A stretch of 40,312 nucleotides of DNA from a virus (lineage: Duplodnaviria; Caudoviricetes). The DNA lies in the IMG/VR virus record IMGVR_UViG_3300010362_000049, positions 1-40,312 of that record; one strand, given 5' to 3'. Below, in pieces: positions 7,401 through 37,689 of this stretch. How positions within the stretch are numbered: position 1 is the stretch's first letter; the number at the start of each line of letters is the position of its first letter. A program made the translations under genes and the position numbers. Under the pieces are notes generated by a model. It saw only the letters and a list, made by a program, of their open reading frames with translations, made no database searches and was not told where the DNA came from.

Positions 7401-8576
7401 ATGGCAACTCTCACGCCGACTGAGACTTACATCGCACTGGTGCAAGGCGCGAGCGGCGCGGCGCCGGCACCGCGACCGCTCGATCGCCGCACATTGCACG
7501 CCTCGTACTGCTCGCATCGCGACAGCACCGGTGAAGTCGTCTTCGATCCGATCTACTTCGGTGTGCTGTGGGCTGACGGCAATCGAGCCCGCATCGATGA
7601 CTGCCTGGCGACCAAGCGCGGCCTCGGCGTCGACGCGATTCAACTGTGCGTCCAAGGCGGGTACGGAAGTTACTTCGGCGGGCGCACGTTTGATTTTCGG
7701 AGTCACCCGAGTCAGTACGGCGACCTCTGCACCTACATGCGCGATGCCGGCTTTGTCCCGATCATTCTCGTCGCGACGGCCGACGGCGGCACCCACAAAG
7801 AGATTTACGACGGGACCATGCAACGCGTCCTCGAGGCCACCGCACATCTCGCGAAGGATGCCTGGTATTGCGCGGGCTACGAACAAAACCTGGATCGCGG
7901 CGGTGCGTATTCAGCGCGACAGCAACACGACGCCGCGCTGCTGATGCGGCAGGTCTGCGGACCTGAGGCGTACTTGATGCTCTGGTTACAGCCGATGCGC
8001 TGCACAATGGCGGCCTACTGGGGCAGTAACAAGGATCACAAACCGACGGCGCCCGACTGGAATCCGATCGACTTTCGATGGGTCACGAGCGCCAGCAATC
8101 CGGCCGAAGGCGCCTGGATTGAAGCCGACGATCCGGCCGGCGGAGGCGAGCAGGAAGCGTGGTACATCGAAGGTGGACTAGAGCTTGACGGGCTCTGGTA
8201 TCAAACGGATCACGGCTCGAATGGACCGAGTTACGCGGCGCCAGGCGGGACACCGGGGCTTGACTCGTTCGGGCAGCCACGTTACTTCGATCGATTGATT
8301 GAAATTTGCGATCGCTTTCTGGCACCGGGCACACCGATGCCGGGTGCAGACGGCTTCATCGACAGCAGCGGGTACCGACATACGGGCGTCTGCCCGTCAC
8401 ATTCGGCGCCCGACTGGTTCCATCAGTCACGTACGCGCGGGCGCCCGACGTTGATCGTCGGTGAGACGGTGCCGTACGAATACACGCGCGACCAGTGCTG
8501 CGATGAAGCGGTCAGCGAGTGCACGCGCGCGCTCGACTCACTGGGCATCACGTCACACGGATGTTGGCGCGCGTAG
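7401..8576 (+). CDS. Putative glycoside-hydrolase-like (TIM barrel) protein, possible lysin
   Basis: Alternating beta/alpha pattern GVDAIQL, GFVPIILV, YCAGYE, LIVGE; the Glu positions resemble clan GH-A (inference). Confidence 0.5.
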   Translation: MATLTPTETYIALVQGASGAAPAPRPLDRRTLHASYCSHRDSTGEVVFDPIYFGVLWADGNRARIDDCLATKRGLGVDAIQLCVQGGYGSYFGGRTFDFRSHPSQYGDLCTYMRDAGFVPIILVATADGGTHKEIYDGTMQRVLEATAHLAKDAWYCAGYEQNLDRGGAYSARQQHDAALLMRQVCGPEAYLMLWLQPMRCTMAAYWGSNKDHKPTAPDWNPIDFRWVTSASNPAEGAWIEADDPAGGGEQEAWYIEGGLELDGLWYQTDHGSNGPSYAAPGGTPGLDSFGQPRYFDRLIEICDRFLAPGTPMPGADGFIDSSGYRHTGVCPSHSAPDWFHQSRTRGRPTLIVGETVPYEYTRDQCCDEAVSECTRALDSLGITSHGCWRA

Positions 8577-8601
8577 TGTAGAATCTGAGGCCGACTAGGC
8601 G

Positions 8602-8787
8602 ATGAGTCGACCCGGCCGGCCTCGTGTCGATCCGCGCGACCAATCGGTCACGCTCTGTCTCACGTTGCCTGCCCGCCAGTATGACCGTGCCTGTCACGAT
8701 GCCCGCCGCGCCGATGTCTCAGTCGCGGAAGTGATTCGCCGGCAGCTCGCCGCCGCGAAGTCACAAGCGACTGAGGAAGACGAATAA
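8602..8787 (+). CDS. Ribbon-helix-helix protein upstream of the head operon
   Basis: GRPR motif, beta strand VTLCLTLP, helices YDRACHDARR / VSVAEVIRR. Confidence 0.7.
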   Translation: MSRPGRPRVDPRDQSVTLCLTLPARQYDRACHDARRADVSVAEVIRRQLAAAKSQATEEDE

Positions 8788-8840: not shown

Positions 8841-9098
8841 GTGTGGGCCTGGCTGCGCGCATTGCTTGACGTGATCCTTGGTCTGCCACCGTGCCGGCTG
8901 CGGGTGATTGTCGTCAACCTGAAGAGTGATCCTGACAACGCGCTCGAAGGCGTGCTCTGGAGTGCGCGCGGCGACTGGTATGTGCTGCGCAATGGCGCAC
9001 TCGTCAACCCGAACGCGGACCCCGACAAACGCCGCATTCCGGCCGAAGGCGAACTCGTGATTCATCGCGGCAACATCGCGTACTTACAGGTCTTCTGA
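8841..9098 (+). CDS. Conserved-looking small protein preceding the portal
   Basis: 85 aa, beta-rich, directly abuts the portal start. Confidence 0.7.
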   Translation: MWAWLRALLDVILGLPPCRLRVIVVNLKSDPDNALEGVLWSARGDWYVLRNGALVNPNADPDKRRIPAEGELVIHRGNIAYLQVF

Positions 9099-10586
9099 GT
9101 GGCGATCGTCCGATCCTTCGGCGTCTTCCAAAGCACCGAGCGCCGCGCTGCGTTAGTCCCGACCGTGAGTGCGGCGCCGGCCTTCGGCATGACCTACGGC
9201 CTCGGCCAGCAATACGCGCTGATCTATGCGTCACAGCCGAACGTGCGGACCTGCGTCGACTTTCTCGCGCGCAACATCGCACAAGTCGGGTATCACGTGT
9301 TTCGGCGGGTGTCGGATACCGATCGGGTGCGCTTGGCCGATCACCAACTCAGCGACTGGCTGGAGCACCCGAACCCGTACACCTCGAGGTACCGCCTGTT
9401 CGAGAGTTACGTGGCGGATCTCGCGCTCTATTTCAATGCGTACTGGCTGAAGGTGCGCGAGCCCGATCGCATCGGCCTGGTGCGCGTCCCACCGCCGTCG
9501 ATGACGGTCGAAGGCGGATTACTGCCGGAAACGTTCATCTATCACGGCAATACGCAGACGCCCTTTGCGCCGTCGGAAGTCGTCTATGCGAACGGGTACA
9601 ACCCACTAAATCCCATCTTCGGCCTCTCACCGATCGAAACGTTGCGGCGGGTACTGGCTGAGGAAGCGGCCGCCGGCGAGCACCGCGAACGGTACTGGCG
9701 CAATGCCTCTCGCATGGAAGGCATCATCGAGCGGCCGAAGGACGCACCGAGGTGGACGCCCGAACAGAAACAAAAATGGCGTGAGCAGTGGCAGCAGCGG
9801 TACACCGGTCCCGCGAGTGTCGGCGCCGTCCCGGTCTTAGAAGACGGCATGACCTTCAAAGAGATTTCCTACTCGATGAAGGATTCCGACTATCTCAACG
9901 CGCGCAAACTCACGCGCGAAGAGTGCGCCGCGGCCTGGCACATTCCGCTCCCGATGGTCGGCATTCTCGATCACGCCACCTTCAGCAACATCAAAGAGCA
10001 GCACAAACAGCTGTACCAAGACTGCCTCGGGCCCTGGCTGGAAATGCTGGCGCAAGCGATCGAATTACAACTGCTGCCGGACTGTCAGGATACCGCCGGC
10101 ATTTACACCGAATTCAACATTGCCGACAAGATGAAGGGTTCGTTTGAAGAGCAGGCGGACTCACTGCGGCAAGCGGTCGACGGGCCGATCATGACGGCGA
10201 ATGAAGCGCGCTCTCGCTTGAACTTACCGCGCCTCGATGATCCGCGCGCTGATCGCTTGAACGAACCACGCGGCGGGCCATCGGTCGAAGTGCGGCCTGG
10301 TGCGGCCGGCGCCGCGGTGCCGTCGATCGTGCGCGCGCACTGGGCCCGACAACGTTCGCGACTGGAGCGGCTACCAGTCGACGAGCGCGCCGAAGCCCTG
10401 AATCACCAGCGGTGCACCAGCGAGCTCGCGGCGGACCTCTCGCGTCACCTCGGCCGCGGCGAGGCCTGGACGTATGCGGCGCGGGTCACTGACGAGACAT
10501 ACACGCTCTTACTCGAAGGGCGCCAGGCTTTCGGCGCCGATCGGGAACCGCGGCCAGTGGAGTACAGCTATGACCAAGCGGCGTGA
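9099..10586 (+). CDS. HK97-family portal protein
   Basis: GLSPIE, VLEDGMTF, TFSNIKEQ, IMTANEARSRLNLP motifs. Confidence 0.95.
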   Translation: MAIVRSFGVFQSTERRAALVPTVSAAPAFGMTYGLGQQYALIYASQPNVRTCVDFLARNIAQVGYHVFRRVSDTDRVRLADHQLSDWLEHPNPYTSRYRLFESYVADLALYFNAYWLKVREPDRIGLVRVPPPSMTVEGGLLPETFIYHGNTQTPFAPSEVVYANGYNPLNPIFGLSPIETLRRVLAEEAAAGEHRERYWRNASRMEGIIERPKDAPRWTPEQKQKWREQWQQRYTGPASVGAVPVLEDGMTFKEISYSMKDSDYLNARKLTREECAAAWHIPLPMVGILDHATFSNIKEQHKQLYQDCLGPWLEMLAQAIELQLLPDCQDTAGIYTEFNIADKMKGSFEEQADSLRQAVDGPIMTANEARSRLNLPRLDDPRADRLNEPRGGPSVEVRPGAAGAAVPSIVRAHWARQRSRLERLPVDERAEALNHQRCTSELAADLSRHLGRGEAWTYAARVTDETYTLLLEGRQAFGADREPRPVEYSYDQAA

Positions 10587-11592
10587 TAGCGCGCGATACG
10601 AGCACTTAGTCGCGTTCGCACTGGAGCACCCGTGGGCGATTACGCCCGCGATGCGCGCGATCGTCGCGGGGATTCTCGTGCGGCGCATCGTCGGCGAGGA
10701 CCCCGACGAGGACGCGATCGCCGCGGCGATTCAAGCGCGAGAGACGCGCGTGCATCCGGTCAATAGCGGCGGGCTCGTGGCGGTCATTCCGATCGCGGGT
10801 GTGCTCGCACCGCGCATGAATCTGTTTTCCGACATGAGCGGCGGCACGTCATTCGAGTTACTCAGCAAACAATTCAGAACCGCCGTCGATGATCCGAATG
10901 TGAAGACCGTCGTTTTCGACGTCGATAGTCCAGGCGGGAACGTCGCGGGTGCGACCGAGTTCGCGCGCGAGGTCCTGAAGGCGCGCACGCAGAAACGGAT
11001 CATCGCGCACGCACAGTACCTGATGGCCTCAGCGAGTTACTGGCCGATGGCGTGCGCGACTGAGATTGTCGCGTCACCCTCGGCAATGGTCGGATCGATC
11101 GGCGTCTATGCCTTGCACGATGACGTGAGCGAGATGCTCGCGAAGATGGGCATCAAGCGCGAAGTTTTCACCGCGGGCAAATACAAAGGCGAAGGCGCCG
11201 ACGGCGGGCCTCTGTCCGAGGATGCCCGCGCGCACGTCCAAACCTTGATCGATGGATCGTACGGGCGCTTTGTCGGCGACGTCGCGAAAGGCCGCGGTGT
11301 GTCACCAGCCGAGGTCCGCAAGGGTTTCGGCGAAGGCCGCGCGCTCGGTGCCGAGGCCGCTCTAAGTGCCGGCCTGATCGATCGGATCGATACGTTTGAA
11401 AACACACTCGCCCGCGCGAGTAAGCCGACCTCGAGCGGCGACGCGCGCGGCACGCTGGAGTCACCGCCCGTGGTCACGGACCAGGAGCCGGCACCGCCGG
11501 CCACGTCCCAGGAATCACGCGCGGCGATCGATGCGTCGTTTGTCGAGTACGAGCAGCGAGTGCTTGCACTCACGACAAAGAGGCTGCGATGA
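10570..11592 (+). CDS. S49-family prohead protease
   Basis: DVDSPGG, ASASYW, VGSIGV, AGKYK, GLIDRI motifs; start MTKRR at 10570. Confidence 0.92.
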   Translation: MTKRRDSARYEHLVAFALEHPWAITPAMRAIVAGILVRRIVGEDPDEDAIAAAIQARETRVHPVNSGGLVAVIPIAGVLAPRMNLFSDMSGGTSFELLSKQFRTAVDDPNVKTVVFDVDSPGGNVAGATEFAREVLKARTQKRIIAHAQYLMASASYWPMACATEIVASPSAMVGSIGVYALHDDVSEMLAKMGIKREVFTAGKYKGEGADGGPLSEDARAHVQTLIDGSYGRFVGDVAKGRGVSPAEVRKGFGEGRALGAEAALSAGLIDRIDTFENTLARASKPTSSGDARGTLESPPVVTDQEPAPPATSQESRAAIDASFVEYEQRVLALTTKRLR

Positions 11593-12896
11593 ATACCGTG
11601 CAATGGGAATCGGATTTGCGCGCGGCGACTAACAAGGCCCGCGCACTCATCGAAACGATCACGCAAACCTGTCAGGAGCATGTCACCCCGGCGACCGCCA
11701 CCGCGCCGGCGGTCACCGGCCGACTGATGACGGCTGACGAGCGCGCGAGTATCGACGCGGCGCTGGCAGCCGCGGAAGAGATTCAGAAGAAAATCGATCG
11801 CGCACAAAGTGACGCCTCGATGCTCGCACGGCTCGACAAGATGACGGGCGGCGCCGGCACGCGGCCGACCTCGACCGGTGGCAATGGCGGCACCGGACTC
11901 ACGTTGCATCAGCAATCAGTCGGCCGGCAGTTTGTGCAGTCGGCTGAATTCCAGAACCTGATCAAGAGTCGGTTACATCGCGGGTCGAGTTCCTGGTCAA
12001 CCGGCGCCGTCGAGTGCTTCAACCTACGTGCGACCACGATCACCTCTGACCCCGCGTCGGCCGGCAAACTGATCGTGCCGCAGTATCTACCCGGGATTCA
12101 GCCGCTCCTATTCAAGCGCCTGGTGGTCGCCGACTTGATGGGCTCGGGCACAACGGATTCAAACGCGATCGTCTACATGGTGGAAACGGTCTTCACCAAT
12201 GCGGCGACGCCCGTGGCAGAAGGCGCCGCGAAGCCGGAAAGCACGTTAGTTTTCGATCAGAAAACGGACCCGGTGTCGAAGATTGCGCATTGGATTCCTG
12301 TCACCGAGGAACTCCTGGAAGACGTGCCCGCGATGGAGAGTTACATCGATGCGCGCTTGCGGCTCGGTGTCGAACTCGCCGAGGAAGACCAGTTACTCAA
12401 CGGCAACGGCACCCCGCCGAATGTGCTCGGCCTCATGAATCGGTCGGGCCTCGCGCCGGCATTGGCGCGCGATTCGGCGGCCACGCCACCGGAAACAAAC
12501 GCCGATGTGCTCGCGCGGCAGACGATGGCGATCGCGACCAGCTCGTTTGTCTATCCCGATGGGTACATGCTGAATCCGGCCAACTGGTTCAAGATCCAGA
12601 TCAGCAAAGACAACAACGGGCAGTACTACGGCATGGGACCATTCTCGCCGCTCCCGACGCCGTCGTTGTGGGGCTTACCCGTCGCGGTCACGCCGTCGAT
12701 CGTTGCGGGCACGGGACTGGTGGGTGCGTTCAGCACGCAGTCACAAGTCTTCCGCAAGGGTGGGATTCGCGTCGAAGCGAGTAACAGTCACCAAGACTAC
12801 TTCATCAAAAACCTCGTCGCGATTCGCGCGGAAGAACGCCTCGCGCTCGCGGTGTATCGGCCTGGTGCGTTCGGCAAAGTGACCGGACTCAACTAA
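11589..12896 (+). CDS. HK97-fold major capsid protein
   Basis: Coiled-coil delta domain; VAEGAAKPES, EDQLLNGNG, LWGLPV, NLVAIRAEERLAL. Confidence 0.95.
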   Translation: MNTVQWESDLRAATNKARALIETITQTCQEHVTPATATAPAVTGRLMTADERASIDAALAAAEEIQKKIDRAQSDASMLARLDKMTGGAGTRPTSTGGNGGTGLTLHQQSVGRQFVQSAEFQNLIKSRLHRGSSSWSTGAVECFNLRATTITSDPASAGKLIVPQYLPGIQPLLFKRLVVADLMGSGTTDSNAIVYMVETVFTNAATPVAEGAAKPESTLVFDQKTDPVSKIAHWIPVTEELLEDVPAMESYIDARLRLGVELAEEDQLLNGNGTPPNVLGLMNRSGLAPALARDSAATPPETNADVLARQTMAIATSSFVYPDGYMLNPANWFKIQISKDNNGQYYGMGPFSPLPTPSLWGLPVAVTPSIVAGTGLVGAFSTQSQVFRKGGIRVEASNSHQDYFIKNLVAIRAEERLALAVYRPGAFGKVTGLN

Positions 12897-24699: not shown

Positions 24700-26382
24700 T
24701 CACGCCACGACTAAATCGGGATCGTCGGCGACGGGCGCCGCGGTGAGGCGTAACAGGATGTTCCAGGCGATCGCGAGCGCCACGATCGGATCGATGCGGC
24801 CGCGGCTGCGTTTCTTCGCCGGCAGGATATTGTCTTTGTCGTCACGTTTCACCACGATGTTACTCGCCGCCCACTCCATCACCGGGCAAGCGCCGGCATT
24901 GACCGCGCCGGCGAGCACTTCCGCTTCAAGCTCCTTACAGCCGCTCGACATACCCGCGTAGGTTTGCGACACCTCGAGGATCTGATCCTCACTGAATCCG
25001 TCTTCCTCTTGGAGTGCGACTTCTAACTGATCGGCATGCCAAGGATCGAAGCCGACCGCTTGAATCACCGCGAGCGCGGCGAGCTGCGCGAGCGCATCGC
25101 GAATCACCTGATGATTCACCTTGGTCCCAGGCACCGCGATCAGATGTCCCGCTTCGACCCATTGCGGATACGGCGCCCGATCACGATGCGCGCGATCCTC
25201 TAACGTGTCGGCCGGCGTCCAAATCCATCGGAGCACGCGCCACTGACTCACGTTCGGTGTCGGTGGAAACAACGCCGTCATCGCGCACAAGTCGAGTTTC
25301 GAGGCGAGGTCGATGCCGACGGCGCACGGCTGACCGCGCAGGTCCTCGCGCGCCCACGTGCGCGATTGACCTTTGCGCCAGCCATCGAGCGATAGCCACG
25401 GCTGACTCGTGTGCACCCAGATGTTCAACCGTTTCTGTTTGTAGGCCGCGGCCGCGGCGGGAATGCCTTGTGCCTTGCGCACTAACGCCGCGAGATCATC
25501 GGGCTTCACTGAGACGCCGTAGTTGGGATTCGCCTTGCGCGCGGTTTTCAGACTCGTCCAATCGTCTGACGGATCGGCGTGAGCGATGAACGCGAAGTAC
25601 GTATCATCGACTAACACGCGCTCAAGGATCTGACACGCATAGTGGTGCTCCTGCCCGCACGGTGAATTCGGATCGTCACCCGCCGTCGTGATCTTGAAGA
25701 CGATCGGTTGACGGCGCGCACCCGTCGACGTTTCGAGCACGTCGATCATGCCGCGCGTTTTGTACTTGTGAATTTCATCCAGACTGAGAAAGTGAATGTT
25801 GAGGCCGTCGAGTGAATCTTCGTCGGCGCCAAGTGGTTCGAGCTTCGACGCACTCACGTCGCGATAGAGGTTCGACATCAGCACCGCGATGCGGGTGCGC
25901 AACCCGCTCGTGAGCACTAACCGCTTCGCATCGTTGAAAACGATCCGCGCCTGGTCTTTCTTCGTCGCCGCGCAGTACCCTTCGGCACCGGGCTCGCCGT
26001 CGAAGAATGTGGCGTAGACGGCGACCACCGCATCCTCAAGCGACTTCCCTTGTTTGCGCGGTAGCTCGTTGTACGAATGCCGGAACCGTCGCAACCCGCT
26101 ATCACGATGCACCCATCCGAAGAGTGAGCCGAGGCGGTACTGTTGATGCGGCTGCCAGCGAATGAACTGACCGGCCCACTCACCTTTGTAGTGCTTCAAC
26201 TGCTCGCCGAAACGCAGGAAGCGATCGGCGCGATCGAGGTCTAGCAGATACGAAAACCGGCGGGTGCCTTCACGCCGGCGATCGTACTCGTGCCGCTCGC
26301 ACGCGAGGCGATGATACTTACCGGCCGGCACTTTGCCACTGACGACGCTGCGGACATAGGCGTCGATCGGGTGCCGCGCCAT
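24700..26382 (-). CDS. terL: Terminase large subunit
   Basis: Walker A PRKQGKS, Walker B LSLDEIH, ITTAG, GIDLASKLDL, RIDPIVA. Confidence 0.96.
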   Translation of the reverse strand: MARHPIDAYVRSVVSGKVPAGKYHRLACERHEYDRRREGTRRFSYLLDLDRADRFLRFGEQLKHYKGEWAGQFIRWQPHQQYRLGSLFGWVHRDSGLRRFRHSYNELPRKQGKSLEDAVVAVYATFFDGEPGAEGYCAATKKDQARIVFNDAKRLVLTSGLRTRIAVLMSNLYRDVSASKLEPLGADEDSLDGLNIHFLSLDEIHKYKTRGMIDVLETSTGARRQPIVFKITTAGDDPNSPCGQEHHYACQILERVLVDDTYFAFIAHADPSDDWTSLKTARKANPNYGVSVKPDDLAALVRKAQGIPAAAAAYKQKRLNIWVHTSQPWLSLDGWRKGQSRTWAREDLRGQPCAVGIDLASKLDLCAMTALFPPTPNVSQWRVLRWIWTPADTLEDRAHRDRAPYPQWVEAGHLIAVPGTKVNHQVIRDALAQLAALAVIQAVGFDPWHADQLEVALQEEDGFSEDQILEVSQTYAGMSSGCKELEAEVLAGAVNAGACPVMEWAASNIVVKRDDKDNILPAKKRSRGRIDPIVALAIAWNILLRLTAAPVADDPDLVVA

Positions 26383-26396
26383 GATCGCGGCCTCAA

Positions 26397-26903
26397 CTAA
26401 TTCGAGCGCCGCGGGCCTGGCGGTGCCGGCGGCATCGGCTGATCGAATTCACTAAATGGATCGTCGGCGGGCGGGCGAGTCACAGTCACGCGCGATCGAC
26501 TCGACGGCGTGAGCCCAAGTTCCGGCCAGAGCCGCGCACACCCGGCGAGCGCCTTTGTCGCGATCGACAGATACGGATTCGGAATCGGGTACCCGTTCGG
26601 CGTACTGACGACTAAGCCGGCGGTGCGGACCTTCGCCGTCGCATCGAGGTACCGCGCCCATTCGAGACAGAGCGCGAGCAGCGCGGCACGATCGGCATTC
26701 GTGATCTGGCGGGCCTGGACTAACAGCGGCGCCAACCGCTGCCATTCGGCGAGCGCCAGCGGCGCATCGACTAACTCCGCCGGCGGTGTCAGAAAGGCGT
26801 CGTCACTCACGGCCGGCTTGGGCTCGTCTGGATTGGTGCCGCGTTTACCGGGATAGCCCGCGAGTTCTTTGCGCCAGGACGGCAGCGGTTTACGACCGCG
26901 CAT
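26397..26903 (-). CDS. terS: Terminase small subunit (P27 family)
   Basis: MRGRKP, W..LAP.L, NPYL, ELGLTPSSRSR. Confidence 0.92.
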   Translation of the reverse strand: MRGRKPLPSWRKELAGYPGKRGTNPDEPKPAVSDDAFLTPPAELVDAPLALAEWQRLAPLLVQARQITNADRAALLALCLEWARYLDATAKVRTAGLVVSTPNGYPIPNPYLSIATKALAGCARLWPELGLTPSSRSRVTVTRPPADDPFSEFDQPMPPAPPGPRRSN

Positions 26904-32543: not shown

Positions 32544-32836
32544 GATTTGTGATCAATTTGTGATCGATTTGCTGAAAAGCGCGCGTCAGCACTAACACAC
32601 GATGAAAAGGAAATTGAAGAATTGCTAAGGAATTAGAAGCGCGCGTAAGCCTACGTAAGCACCAGCCTTCTAAAGTCAGGCTTAGAAGGCCGGTGCTCTA
32701 TCCAACTGAGCTACGGGCGCATATGTGGGCTAAGTGCGTGCTATGCCAAGCGTTTAGCGCCTTTGATCAATCGCGGCATTCGACTAAGTGCTAACGCCGT
32801 TTGGTGATTTGTGATCGATTTGTGATCGATTTGCTG
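32544..32836. other. attP: tRNA-derived core flanked by integrase arm-type repeats
   Basis: (g/a)atttgtgatc x2 plus gatttgctg at both 32544-32574 and 32806-32836; 16-bp inverted arms at 32658-32673 / 32682-32697. Confidence 0.85.
32679..32720 (-). tRNA. 5' half of tRNA-Arg(TCT) (attP identity segment, not a full tRNA)
   Basis: GCGCCCGTAGCTCAGTTGGATAGAGCACCGGCCTTCTAAGCC; acceptor 5' strand, D-arm and anticodon loop present, no T-arm. Confidence 0.88.
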
Positions 32837-34156
32837 CGTTTCGGCGCCCGCCGCGGGTGCATCGGGTGTCGGTTCGGGCGCCGCGGGTGCCTTGCGCCAC
32901 GCATCATACGCCTGTCGCGAGCGGCGAATGTTCGCGGCCTTCGCGTGCAAGTAGGTCGCCGTTTGCGCGATCGAAGAATGGCCGAGCAGATGACTAATCT
33001 CACCAAGATCGATCTGTCCGCTTTCCAGCCACCGGCACGCGGCCTCGTGCCTGATGTCGTGAATGTTCAAGTCGATGTCGGCGAGCGCCGCGCGCGAGCG
33101 CGCATCGAAGTCACCAGTCTCGGTCCAGGCCGGCTCGATGTTATTCGAGCGCAGCACCGCCGTCAGGAAGCTCTTATCGATCGATTTGATTTGATCGCCG
33201 TAGGGATCACCGAAGACGAAGGCCCGCCGCGGCAGTGGCTTGCCCGCGGGATCGGTGCGCCGCAATCCGACTAACAGGTCGTACATCGGTTCGAACATTT
33301 CGATCATGCGCCCGCCCGTCGTGTCCGCGGTTTTGCCCGCGCCAACTTCCTCGCCGCGCACGTAGATTTGCCGCTGCACTAAGTGGACGTCAGGCCAGCG
33401 CAGCGCCAGCAGCTCACCGATACGCATGGCGGTTTCCATCAGTCCGATCAGCACGAGCGGCAGCAATCGCTCGCGTGATTCCGTCGCGGCCTCAAGTAGA
33501 TTCGACCATTCGCGCTCGTCGATGCGGCGCCGGCGCTGCGCAAACTTTTTGCGGCCTAATCGTTTCACCAAGTCAGGCGGTGCGGTCGCAATCGGATCGG
33601 CCGGAATGTGACCGCTCCATTTCGCCCATCGACTGAATTGCCCGATCAGCGTCCGGTACTTGCCCCAGGTCGAATGCGCCAAGTCACCGAGCGCCGCGCG
33701 CACCGCGATCCAATCATCGATCGTCACCTTTGCCATGATGCGATCGCCGAAGCGGTGTTTCCCGATCGTCACGTTACGGAGCGTACCGAGCTTGTAGCGA
33801 TCCTCGGCTTTGCTGCGATCGGTTTTATCGGGTGTGACGGTCAGACTGAGTTCATCGTAGAGCGTCACTAACAGGTCGACGGTGAGCCCTTGCGGTTTGT
33901 CGGGTTCCGCGGGTGCCGGCGGTGCGTACCCTTTGGCCTTCTGATAGGTTTTGTTGCGGATGGCCTGACGGATTTTTTCCGCGACGTCTTCCGCTTCGGT
34001 TTTCGTGTTATGCCACGGATCGATCGCAAGCACGTCGATCGCGTACCGAGTCACGTTCGGGGCTTCGCCGCGGAAGTGCTTCATGTACCAGGCATGGTCG
34101 AAGCACTTCGGCCACCTGGCTTCGTCGCACCCGCAGCGTTTCGTCACAATGCTCAT
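32741..34156 (-). CDS. int: Tyrosine integrase
   Basis: TAMRIGELLALRW, K, HDIRH, LLGHS, Y catalytic residues. Confidence 0.95.
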   Translation of the reverse strand: MSIVTKRCGCDEARWPKCFDHAWYMKHFRGEAPNVTRYAIDVLAIDPWHNTKTEAEDVAEKIRQAIRNKTYQKAKGYAPPAPAEPDKPQGLTVDLLVTLYDELSLTVTPDKTDRSKAEDRYKLGTLRNVTIGKHRFGDRIMAKVTIDDWIAVRAALGDLAHSTWGKYRTLIGQFSRWAKWSGHIPADPIATAPPDLVKRLGRKKFAQRRRRIDEREWSNLLEAATESRERLLPLVLIGLMETAMRIGELLALRWPDVHLVQRQIYVRGEEVGAGKTADTTGGRMIEMFEPMYDLLVGLRRTDPAGKPLPRRAFVFGDPYGDQIKSIDKSFLTAVLRSNNIEPAWTETGDFDARSRAALADIDLNIHDIRHEAACRWLESGQIDLGEISHLLGHSSIAQTATYLHAKAANIRRSRQAYDAWRKAPAAPEPTPDAPAAGAETQQIDHKSITNHQTALALSRMPRLIKGAKRLA

Positions 34157-34385: not shown

Positions 34386-34552
34386 AGGCTCGCCTCGATT
34401 CCTCTGGACTGAGCCCAGAGCACGATTGCCCGCTCCAACTGAGCGCGCAAGGGAAGGCCATCACGCCGCTTGATTTCATCGAGCAGCGCACGCACCTTCG
34501 GGGTTAGTTCGACAACGAGCAACTCACGTTTCGGCTTGCGATGTGTTTTCAT
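34382..34552 (-). CDS. Small RHH-like regulator (56 aa, not in ORF track)
   Basis: MKTHRKPKRELLVVELTPKVRALLDEIKRRDGLPLRAQLERAIVLW...; ATGA overlap with the next gene. Confidence 0.65.
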   Translation of the reverse strand: MKTHRKPKRELLVVELTPKVRALLDEIKRRDGLPLRAQLERAIVLWAQSRGIEASL

Positions 34553-34597
34553 GCGGGAAGCGTAGCATGAAAGATATAGCGGAGTAAAGCGTATGCT

Positions 34598-34882
34598 TTA
34601 TCGCCCAGATTTGCGCGGAAAAGGCCGCGGGCCGATCGCGGGTGCGGGCTCGCCTGGTGCGTCAGGATTGATCACCGTCGGGGTACTGAGACTAATCAGC
34701 CACGCATCGAGCCACGTATCGAGGATGCGGATTTGATACTTGGTGCCGAGGCGTGAGGCACGTAAGCGACCGTCGTGAATCGCGCGGTAAATCAACTGCG
34801 CGCTGCATTTCGCGCGGGCCGCGGCCTCTTTGACCGTGAGCCATTCCGTCGAGACGCGATCGGCGGGTGCGGCGATCGTCAC
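34598..34882 (-). CDS. xis: Excisionase-family HTH protein
   Basis: WLTVKEAA....S...IYRAI..G.L.A..LG....RI....LDAW; upstream of the integrase. Confidence 0.8.
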   Translation of the reverse strand: MTIAAPADRVSTEWLTVKEAAARAKCSAQLIYRAIHDGRLRASRLGTKYQIRILDTWLDAWLISLSTPTVINPDAPGEPAPAIGPRPFPRKSGR

Positions 34883-35181
34883 GATCGTTCGGCCTCGATG
34901 CGCGCGACCCAGGCCGCGATGTCGATCACCGTCACAAAGTCACCCTGCGGCAACCACGTCAGCCAGTCGGCTTTGAATCGCTGATGCAGTACGCGCGCCT
35001 TGTGCGGCGTCACGCCGGCCTCTAACAGCAGCGCGAGCGCCAACTGCGCAGGACCGCTGCCAGCATAGCCCCAGTTGAAACCGGTGGGACTATGGTTCCA
35101 GACCTCGAGAGAGCGATCGGGCAGCAGCTCGCGCCCGTCGACTAACACGCGCCTGGTGCGCCAGTCACCTTGAATCGTCAT
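34879..35181 (-). CDS. DUF6166-like protein
   Basis: NHSPTGFNWGYAGSGPAQLALALL; ATG at 35181 preceded by AGGA from the last array junction. Confidence 0.75.
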   Translation of the reverse strand: MTIQGDWRTRRVLVDGRELLPDRSLEVWNHSPTGFNWGYAGSGPAQLALALLLEAGVTPHKARVLHQRFKADWLTWLPQGDFVTVIDIAAWVARIEAERS

Positions 35182-35187
35182 GTATTT

Positions 35188-35768
35188 CCTGCCTTCCGCA
35201 CCGTGCCTTGTCGCCCGAGACTGGCCCAAAGCGGGGTGGCCCAGTCTTACCGCGACTCACGAGAACGGCCATGCCGCACGCCGTCATGCCTCAACATTCC
35301 ATTCATGTCACGTCAATCGCTACCGCATCGCGACGTGGCGGCCTTGTCTAACACGCCTTGCCCGAACGCGCCTGGATAGACGTGCCGTTACCCGCCGCAT
35401 CTTTGTCGGCCGTAACAAACCCGACCCCGCCCCGCCGGGTACGATCCCGCGCGACCGTGCCGAGCCGAATCGGCCGCGTCAGATCGCGCGCCTTGTCGCG
35501 TCGAACCGAGCCTGAGCGAGTCACGCCGGATCTCGCGAAGCCTCCGATGTCACGTCGGCCGCGTCGGAACTGAGTGAGGCTGATCCAATCTCGTCCCGTC
35601 ACACCTAGCCGGCCATACCCAATCTAACCGCGCCGCGCCCTTCGCATGCAGCCAGGCGCCGAGCTTCCGCGCCACTCGCGTCACCCATAACGGGCCTTGC
35701 CCGACCTGCCAAACCGGAACTGACCATATCCTGAGAAGCGTTCCGCCCGTCGCAACGCCCATGCCGAA
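35188..35768 (-). ncRNA. Periodic (GGY/GAY/GTY-NN)n guide-like array, about 8-9 segments (VIPR-like)
   Basis: Visible 5-nt period, e.g. GGC TA GGT GT GAC GG GAC GA GAT TG GAT CA; junctions GGC-C-G / GGC-A-G ending at + positions 35193, 35270, 35343, 35411, 35475, 35560, 35614, (35653), 35710; no credible ORF. Confidence 0.85.
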
Positions 35769-36230
35769 TCAGGCAACCTGTTTCACCACTAACTGCACAC
35801 CGACGATTTCATCGAGTAGCGCGTGGATTTCATTCTGTAACCCGAGCGGCGCCGACAAGTCGAGCGCGCGTCGGACATGACCCGCGGCCGTTTCCAATGT
35901 GTAGATCAAACTTTCGCGCGCGTGATCGGGATTCTGCCGCAGTGTCGCGACCGATTGATACCCTTGGCCTTTCGTGTTCGGCAGGTGCACATACATCGGC
36001 GCCTTGATCGTGGTCGTTTCGTTGGTGACGACCACAGTCACGGCACCGATGATTTCACGGGCCCGCCACAGCCAGTGTTTTTCGGCGGCACGCTGTTGGT
36101 TCCAATCGAACAAGCCGTGAAGCGGACTACGTTTGTTTTTGGCATCCCGCACCACCTGCGCCGGCGTGAGTTGACCGTCGGCATTCTCCAGCGAGCGCAG
36201 GCGACGCAGTTGCGTCTTCGTCAGTGTCAT
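35769..36230 (-). CDS. Accessory protein of the RAMP/array locus (153 aa)
   Basis: GQLTPAQVV.DA....SPLHGLFDW....AA...W...AR.II; starts 4 bp after the RAMP gene and its stop abuts the array. Confidence 0.8.
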   Translation of the reverse strand: MTLTKTQLRRLRSLENADGQLTPAQVVRDAKNKRSPLHGLFDWNQQRAAEKHWLWRAREIIGAVTVVVTNETTTIKAPMYVHLPNTKGQGYQSVATLRQNPDHARESLIYTLETAAGHVRRALDLSAPLGLQNEIHALLDEIVGVQLVVKQVA

Positions 36231-36234
36231 CGAC

Positions 36235-37095
36235 TTACACCGCCATCTCGGCATCATCATCCGTGTCGTCGGGCTCACGGCCGTTACCGTGGGCGGGCGC
36301 ATCGGTGAGCCCTTGCAAGGTGCGCGCGGCAAGCTCGTCACTGAACCACGTCAACAATTCGGCCGTTTCATCGTCATAAGGCACCGGATGGGCGAGCGCA
36401 TCGACTTGCGCTGCGCGACCACCGGTTTTCACGATCCGTTTGAAATCGGGATCGTTTTGGTCACAGACGCGAAAGGCACCATAGTTCAGCGCACCTTTTT
36501 CGGCTCGGCCGTCACCCACGCCAGCGATGATGCCGCCGGCCGCGAGTAGATTTGCGACCGCCTGCGCTCGAATCAGCGGCTTCACAAACGTGATGGTCAG
36601 GCGACAAGCCCACTCACGCATCGCAGCGCGCGTACGAATATCGGGTGTGCGATTCATGTCGGCCGATCGGACCACATCCATCTTCAGCAACGGGATCCCG
36701 AAGACTTCAACCAAGTCACCGTGATCGCCGTCCACTCGGACTAAGCGGCCGACTTGAGCTTTCTTTGCACCTGGGATGTCGAGCGCGGCCGCGCGCATCG
36801 CACCTTTGAAGGCAGCGGCGCGAATGGCGAATAACGTCGCTGCGGTGGGATCCTTCAGCACGTACGGTGACGCTCTGAATTCATCGAGAGGCACATGCTT
36901 CAGAGTCGTCGCACGTTCGATCGCCGTCTTACGACCCCGAGGCAGTAACAATTCGTGCTGCGCCTTTTCGCTGGGCCGATTGTGCACGAGCGTGGTCATG
37001 CCGAGAATGCACGAGTGGAACGTGCCCGTCGAGACTTTCAGGATCTCGGTGATTTCCTCAGTCGCCTTCGGTTTGGTATCCTTCGACTTAGCCAT
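36235..37095 (-). CDS. Stand-alone Cas7/RAMP-like RNA-binding protein (286 aa)
   Basis: LG.TTLVHN, AAAFKGAMRAAA helix, RTRA...W..RL.I.F, glycine-rich loop GG..AGVGDGR.EKG...YG.F.V; AGGAGG RBS. Confidence 0.82.
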   Translation of the reverse strand: MAKSKDTKPKATEEITEILKVSTGTFHSCILGMTTLVHNRPSEKAQHELLLPRGRKTAIERATTLKHVPLDEFRASPYVLKDPTAATLFAIRAAAFKGAMRAAALDIPGAKKAQVGRLVRVDGDHGDLVEVFGIPLLKMDVVRSADMNRTPDIRTRAAMREWACRLTITFVKPLIRAQAVANLLAAGGIIAGVGDGRAEKGALNYGAFRVCDQNDPDFKRIVKTGGRAAQVDALAHPVPYDDETAELLTWFSDELAARTLQGLTDAPAHGNGREPDDTDDDAEMAV

Positions 37096-37131
37096 AACAG
37101 TCCTCCTACCAGGTTGATTGGTGTGGTAACG

Positions 37132-37152
37132 AACCCGCCGCCGCGGCGGGTT
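37132..37152. other. GC-rich hairpin upstream of the RAMP gene
   Basis: aacccgccg-ccg-cggcgggtt; T-rich tail only on the + strand. Confidence 0.55.
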
Positions 37153-37162
37153 TCCTTTCACG

Positions 37163-37468
37163 TCACAAGCCGCGCCCCGTCTTTGCGCCGTGGCACCCGT
37201 GACAGAGCGCCTGCAAGTTAGTTTCGTCCCAAAAGAGCGCGAGATCGCCGCGGTGCGGAATGCGATGATCGACATCGACGGTCCGATCACCGCAGTCACA
37301 AACCGGCTTCGATCGGAGCACGCGAGCGCGCAAGCGGCGCCAGCGCGGCGATCGATAGAGCGCGCGCACCGCGGCATTCGGCCGCACCGCGTCACGAAAA
37401 GGATCATGCTTGCGGCAGTACCCATGCGCGACTAACGTGCGGCAGCGCGGCCGCAGACAGAACCTCAC
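37163..37468 (-). CDS. Terminase-associated (gp74-like) HNH endonuclease
   Basis: Y.S.RW..LR..VL...P.C...VDH.IPH.G...LFWD..NLQALC..CH..KT. Confidence 0.9.
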   Translation of the reverse strand: MRFCLRPRCRTLVAHGYCRKHDPFRDAVRPNAAVRALYRSPRWRRLRARVLRSKPVCDCGDRTVDVDHRIPHRGDLALFWDETNLQALCHGCHGAKTGRGL

Positions 37469-37689
37469 GGTTCACCCGAACGGTTCCCACGTTCCTGATT
37501 CTGTCGAGCGACGTCGATCAGGATCTGGCCTAGCCGTTCGATCTGTTCGACGTCGAGATACGCTTCGTAGGTCACAGCGACCGCGCCATCAACGCCAATC
37601 ACGAGATCCATCAGTCGCGTATTCGGCGGAACCAAGCCGGCGTCTTGGAGCGGCTTATGAAAAGCGCGAACGGATAGACGATTCGCCAT
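37465..37689 (-). CDS. Hypothetical protein, paralog of 15893..16114
   Basis: ATG at 37689; internal paralogy. Confidence 0.7.
   Translation of the reverse strand: MANRLSVRAFHKPLQDAGLVPPNTRLMDLVIGVDGAVAVTYEAYLDVEQIERLGQILIDVARQNQERGNRSGEP

Follow-up and report, generated by a model that had tools for sequence, protein, structure and literature searches.

We propose, with a probability of roughly three in four, that a 64-base segment of a phage genome is a guide RNA of a staggered-array VIPR, which would steer a Vipr filament to the first twelve codons of an RHH-like gene in related temperate phages and so keep their head genes from being transcribed. Directly observed are the repeat, the arrangement of the locus and a match, in codon phase, to one gene family, of which the allele carried by this phage matches less well. 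The segment lies at 35408-35471 (minus strand) of the window, by which we mean the whole 40,312-nucleotide stretch of DNA analysed. According to CheckV the window, a phage record, is nearly complete (97%); it contains an integrase, a repressor and terminase, head and tail genes, and a DNA run that is perhaps the source of the record agrees with it letter for letter over 35100-35900. The phage is temperate, as indicated by its integrase and the neighbouring 5' part of a tRNA gene:

32679..34156, minus strand: integrase gene (32741-34156) and the 5' 42 bases of tRNA-Arg(TCT) (32679-32720), likely attP

The same tRNA half occurs exactly in 6 of 301 Acidobacteriota genomes, which, for the one phylum examined, is only a hint that the host may belong to the Acidobacteriota. 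One of these six genomes (G155) also has a site at 18/20 for the JAB guide described below.

The vipr-like locus and its staggered array

The locus and the part of the array that concerns us first consist of the following features:

36235..37095, minus strand: vipr-like gene, 286 aa, predicted RAMP (Csm3/Cmr4/Cas7-like) fold, glycine-rich loop GxGDGR
35769..36230, minus strand: accessory (vap-like) gene, 153 aa, phrog_15946
about 35730..35198, minus strand: staggered five-base-repeat array, predicted vrRNA array, segments ending in GGC plus one base
35408..35471, minus strand: guide segment, one array unit of 12 NN pairs plus a terminal GGC with a one-base slip
35472..35542, minus strand: guide segment parsed as 10 pairs plus an irregular end

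The predicted structure of the 286-aa protein (pLDDT 84) has Csm3 in the top Foldseek rows (6ifn_E, E 1e-4), while RAMPs occupy the top 25 VIA-align rows and alignment to 6s6b_I gives Z 8.8 with an rmsd of 3.8 over 152 residues. Residues G188, G192, G194, D195, R197 and R154/R156 are invariant in 66 homologues. The model thus predicts what is expected of a Vipr protein, a RAMP fold with G-loop and thumb encoded outside a CRISPR locus. The fold is common to the Class 1 CRISPR RAMPs (Csm3, Cmr4, Cas7), unlike which the gene is accompanied by neither a CRISPR repeat-spacer array nor a cas operon (none in 33-38 kb) and the specificity is gapped rather than contiguous. The G-loop reads GDGR at residues 194-197 and not GDWR, DWR being found in many relatives and the glycine in 46 of 120 homologues. 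An association between the Trp-to-Gly exchange and GAY triplets (p 0.007 over 47 representatives) is confounded by clade, and the highest GAY share belongs to a Trp protein; for these reasons we do not claim it.

Comparison of the 286-aa protein with PDB sequences gave no match to a described Vipr, tblastn against 50,697 GenBank phage records gave no match, and its 90% cluster has one member. Single-protein searches proved insensitive (the RHH-like protein retrieved only itself and the Vipr protein no locus) and alignments worked, an alignment search finding 373 viral relatives, the best 80 of which served as the Vipr relatives. The accessory gene, which matched no named family, has a homologue in 79 of these best 80 of 373 loci, so that the window carries the minimal two-gene vipr plus vap locus of a phage-borne VIPR. 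Among the loci listed, a permissive parser recognized GGY-rich arrays in all 80. The NN pairs of 360 guides of relatives have an entropy of 3.6-3.9 of 4 bits, and none of 704 parsed guides shares more than five pairs with guide 35408-35471. No Vipr was found in 17 matched or related phage records, 16 of them less than 90% complete, or in the searched ones of the 301 Acidobacteriota genomes.

The array lies behind the accessory and RAMP-fold genes on the same strand. Its register slips by a single base wherever a unit is four bases long, in most cases GGC followed by one base; at such terminal units neighbouring guides appear to overlap by one base, both in the window and in 544 parsed guides ending at GGC. 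Segments abut without spacers, and the separate guides with a conserved tail of ~40 bases that characterize type II are absent. The stretch 35686-35640 (minus strand) is out of register, and guide 35472-35542 has no exact match in IMG/VR. The array contains no hammerheads or other Rfam families, and a sigma-70 promoter scan of 34500-37600 found none. The register is also broken in the stretch 35340-35407 (minus strand), which holds a GGCAAGGCGT element that recurs mid-array in relatives L002, L006, L007, L012 and L013. In four others (L011, L037, L071 and L073) array blocks stand upstream of vipr or flank the accessory gene on both sides.

A window-wide scan for such units and triplets singled out guide 35408-35471 as their sole place. 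Read from 35471 to 35408 on the minus strand, its 64 bases parse into twelve five-base units followed by GGC and one base: GATtc GGCtc GGCac GGTcg CGCgg GATcg TACcc GGCgg GGCgg GGTcg GGTtt GTTac GGCc. Eight of the 13 fixed triplets are GGY, 11 begin with G and all 13 end in C or T; 8 GGY in 13 units was reached in 0 of 150 Markov-2 simulations of the window. The segment has the make-up of a VIPR guide, namely 9-16 five-base units (here 12) with a GGY-related triplet and variable NN. All twelve NN pairs listed in the preliminary description were recovered on the plus strand, and the perfect register it reported stands as to spacing, which is exact over 13 triplets, but not as to the fixed triplets, which are loose. 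Decoded in antisense under the one-base-skip rule, the guide reads (GTG)KRPPGRPRVD[DE]. A special RNA fold for the segment was rejected (z -0.35).

The skip rule itself was evaluated by scanning 371 distinct guides (9-14 units) over phage DNA totalling 1.68 Mb, in which arrays had been masked. The best match reached at least 90% for 9 guides with a one-base skip, compared with 0, 1 and 0 guides for skips of 0, 2 and 3 bases, which we rejected as no better than background; one of the nine is guide 35408-35471, scored on loci fetched by its own pattern. Two further guides of the window (HNH and JAB) have exact in-frame matches elsewhere. Judged from these sequence matches, the one-base-skip code, with the skip on the wobble base, appears to hold in this clade.

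By its layout the locus is a VIPR with a staggered array, and hence a new member of a known system. It has in common with the staggered form (10.64898/2026.04.26.720920, fig. S18 legend) a phage-borne RAMP-fold gene with one accessory gene, five-base repeats with variable NN and 9-16 units per guide, the one-base skip at the wobble position, the one-base guide overlap and the lack of any self hit of at least 80%. Unlike that form, its triplets are looser (25/65 GGY and 17 GAY over the array). Non-canonical triplets such as GAC/NN have already been reported in the available text of a further preprint (10.64898/2026.10.21.760802). Its guides are predicted to target a gene of the packaging/head cluster, a packaging HNH gene and a motif of host defence, whereas the available parts of the preprints name satellites, lysis-lysogeny regulators, other VIPRs and REP decoys. 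With the type II VIPR of Escherichia phage SUSP1 and a P. fulva prophage, as far as their accessible text goes (10.64898/2026.04.26.720927; 10.64898/2026.10.15.759431), the locus shares the code and the mode of repression that we infer for it, target sites lying in codon phase over conserved residues, and self scores below rival scores (10.64898/2026.10.15.759431). Unlike type II as described there, its guides have no structured 3' tail and are directly consecutive, and the rival is a full temperate relative rather than a satellite. For the staggered-array form, which the accessible text describes in a figure legend, guide 35408-35471 provides a target that occurs in nature and can be checked.

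An RHH-like gene of related phages as the probable target

The phage carries its own member of the gene family to which the guide corresponds:

8602..8787, plus strand: own small RHH-like gene, start one codon shorter than in the best-matching alleles
8599..8633, plus strand: self site, 18/24 letters, with seven consecutive pairs at 8611-8631
8841..12896, plus strand: head genes downstream, namely a phrog_6750 gene, portal, maturation protease and major head protein

The protein encoded by 8602-8787 has no Pfam match on its own; within the target family 7 of 12 members match Pfam RHH_1 weakly (best E 0.001), and the Foldseek list consists mostly of RHH proteins (Arc, CopG, AmrZ) at E 0.2 or worse. 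A 391-aa gene of no known family (7401-8576) precedes the phage's own copy.

The preliminary description placed the target in homologues of this gene in related phages, and we found such gene starts at up to 22/24 letters and proteins at 11/12 residue classes. The alleles beginning MKRPPGRPRVD[DE] that it suggested looking for did not turn up in full: the exact 12-pair site is absent from IMG/VR, the metagenome set and GTDB, the inner 10 pairs have 0 exact matches in IMG/VR, and none of 252 homologous proteins (compared after dropping two long repetitive rows) fits all 12 decoded classes. Three of these proteins fit 11 classes (MSKRPPGRPRVDE, MPRPPGRPRVDE and VKRPPGRPRVDP) and 14 fit 10; the alignment used in the second protein search was rich in KRPPGRP, and the set is thus enriched for such alleles.

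A degenerate pattern retrieved 26 hits from IMG/VR, 3 at 22/24, 6 at 21 and 17 at 20, the pattern having been widened with knowledge of the family, with a start-like codon forced, and many of the hits coming from few sample series. The 22/24 hits represent two distinct sites, VKRPPGRPPLDE. Other features of the hits were not imposed by the pattern. Twenty of the 26 align in place to the RHH gene, and five open short or divergent frames only. In 25 of the 26 loci terL lies directly upstream, and in nine the portal gene lies downstream, so that the site falls between the terminase and head genes in mid-operon and not, as had been proposed, at the operon's 5' end. The two best-matching elements are ordinary temperate or tailed phages with the gene order terS-terL-RHH-protease/capsid, one with an integrase and a repressor and the other with a portal and a tape measure gene. 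In three loci (L163, L176 and L184) the site opens a short frame and a second RHH-like copy follows 250-620 bases downstream. The terminase genes of the window itself (24700-26903, minus strand) are distant from the head genes and opposite to them in direction, whereas in the relatives terL directly precedes the RHH gene.

An unbiased target set was fetched by means of the portal protein and comprises 80 loci (0.52 Mb). A homologue of 8602-8787 is present in 57 of them, and these yield 48 different sites. The guide matches four of the loci (three distinct sites) at 20-21/24, all at the start codon, while the other skips reach at most 18, 18 and 19 of 24. When the guide was shuffled, 2 of 300 versions reached 21 on this set and none produced four sites of at least 20.

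Self site, proposed mechanism and rival readings

The site 8599-8633 is the window's best for guide 35408-35471. When the order of the pairs was shuffled, 16 of 2000 versions had a self-match run of at least seven pairs, and when single letters were shuffled, 13 of 2000 did; a total of at least 18 letters came up in 395 and 352 of 2000, respectively. For one guide the run thus exceeds chance expectation, unlike the total. The seven-pair match at 8611-8631 noted earlier is real. Its flanking pairs had been described as mismatching, which is fully so for the last pair, but the four upstream pairs each match one letter of two. These mismatches fall one in each of the guide's four 3' units because the phage's own allele is one codon shorter than the best alleles, and the seven-pair run is what homology predicts, G-R-P being nearly invariant in the RHH family. 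The own protein fits 7 of the 12 decoded residue classes. At 75% the self site stays below the 80% that a VIPR self target should not reach, and the best self site of other in-register guides of at least 10 pairs is likewise at most 75%. The self match more likely reflects kinship than self-regulation, and the own allele, one codon shorter, is likely to escape the guide.

By analogy with type II VIPR, the array would be transcribed from the vipr-vap operon and processed into guides at the one-base slips. One Vipr protomer would bind each five-base unit, each NN would pair with two target bases while the wobble base is skipped, and the bound filament would repress by acting as a roadblock. Guide 35408-35471 would pair with the coding strand over codons 1-12 and, since the relatives' site lies just after the terL stop, a roadblock there would cut off the downstream head genes. 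Because the skipped base is the wobble base, the guide would effectively recognize the peptide sequence of the conserved KRPPGRP arm and therefore cover many relatives. It likely enables the phage to shut down particle assembly in rival relatives, and VIPR may accordingly be able to act on genes for late assembly in close kin. The graded natural sites (22, 21, 20 and the phage's own 18 of 24) allow tests of mismatch tolerance, polarity and self/non-self discrimination.

The guide might instead dampen the head operon of this phage itself, for instance during lysogeny, through a self site that is the best in the window, is codon-phased, stands at a gene start ahead of the portal, protease and capsid genes and includes a run seen in just 16 of 2000 shuffles. 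We regard this as improbable, as the site at 18/24 is below the 80% line of the discovery paper, in which no self match exceeds it (10.64898/2026.04.26.720920), the guide is mismatched in each of its four 3' units, homology alone accounts for the run, and relatives match better. In the accessible part of the report on type II structures, engagement begins at 3' subunits 8-12, which may differ in staggered arrays (10.64898/2026.04.26.720927). Also unlikely is that the guide is a leftover against a drifted allele, ancestral or now rare, and silences nothing today. The array is partly out of register or a base short, no exact site was found in IMG/VR, metagenomes or GTDB, and GRPPL alleles outnumber GRPRV alleles in the portal loci, all of which would fit a decaying guide. 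However, this segment has kept exact spacing over 13 triplets, and phages that have been sampled do contain 22/24 sites; in the published work a match of 80% suffices for a natural target (10.64898/2026.04.26.720920), and soil phages are thinly sampled in the collections, as the one-member 90% cluster of the Vipr illustrates.

Binding of rival mRNA over the start codon, blocking translation rather than acting on DNA, would agree with a guide whose sequence complements the coding strand and spans the GTG start, and in the available text on type II Vipr can hold an RNA target in vitro, but most filaments with ssRNA remained incomplete (10.64898/2026.04.26.720927). The JAB and HNH guides, moreover, are in sense orientation and hence unable to pair with mRNA, and we consider this reading very unlikely. 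We give least credence to a target in a host regulator with a GRPR arm, or to a chance match in GC-rich DNA. Among the metagenome hits, the two that have Arg at codon 9 belong to TetR-like regulators and score 21/24, and GRPR arms elsewhere can therefore equal the scores of some family members; in the 301 Acidobacteriota genomes the guide pattern has six hits at 21/24, a chance level given the 11 hits of a reversed-pattern control. Against this, nothing above 21 occurs in about 1.3 Gb of Acidobacteriota DNA, whereas the start codon of a single gene family yields sites at 21 within the 0.52 Mb of portal loci and at 22 in IMG/VR.

Other guides of the array

Three further segments of the array decode in sense orientation:

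35557..35610, minus strand: guide of 10 pairs, sense decoding YVG[ED]WHSHPA, JAB protease motif
35217..35266, minus strand: guide of 10 pairs, sense decoding LEAKCHRCHS, phage HNH endonuclease
35267..35339, minus strand: segment(s) with sense decoding about TAA[SR][FL]VI-IDIGAI, one unit a base short

The JAB guide has 17 exact hits in GTDB, every one in frame on the motif, and PADLOC JAB models recognize all 17 matched proteins. JAB stands alone in six of these, Cap3-like proteins among them, and in five of the six cases a cyclase and an E1-E2 gene adjoin it in a type II CBASS layout (38 of 51 listed neighbours scanned); the other 11 motifs lie in longer frames, mostly with E1/E2-like parts (fused E2-E1-JAB). 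The 301 Acidobacteriota genomes contain five sites at 18-20/20, all in this motif and two of them in genomes already among the GTDB hits, compared with 0 for the reversed control. The scan covered GTDB and these 301 genomes, and a phage-borne JAB target is conceivable. Related JAB guides (WHSHP or WHTHP) occur in 7 of the 80 relative loci, three of which have identical arrays; examples are L002:2759, L003:4194, L014:4849, L024:1744 and L043:11241, and they vary at the amino-acid level.

The HNH guide has one exact IMG/VR hit (10/10, in frame) at L207:2001-2029 in an HNH zinc motif, so that a rival's likely packaging gene is matched for a second time. Tentatively, and with the odds slightly against it, an array of this clade may, by reading conserved peptide motifs, work on two fronts, against packaging and head genes of kin, with the own allele spared, and through the JAB catalytic motif against ubiquitin-like anti-phage systems of the host. 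Since Cap3 undoes the priming of CBASS and usually comes last in the gene order, a phage need not benefit from silencing it, whereas JAB is required in other ubiquitin-like systems. A working JAB guide would extend VIPR from phage-phage conflict to the silencing of host immunity, and the two-front reading, if true, would make VIPR a programmable RNA-guided anti-defence system. A text search of the available parts of the three VIPR preprints found no mention of CBASS, JAB or anti-defense.

The decoding of segment 35267-35339 resembles what we take to be methyltransferase motif I, and similar guides (VVVDIGA, IIIDIGA) occur in several relatives, L043 and L062 being among those with a similar guide. 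Guide L060:11359 matches the 3' end of another relative's vipr gene (L065:10772, 90%), and guide L043:11580 matches L079:6823, presumably a DNA methyltransferase-like gene, at 10/10.
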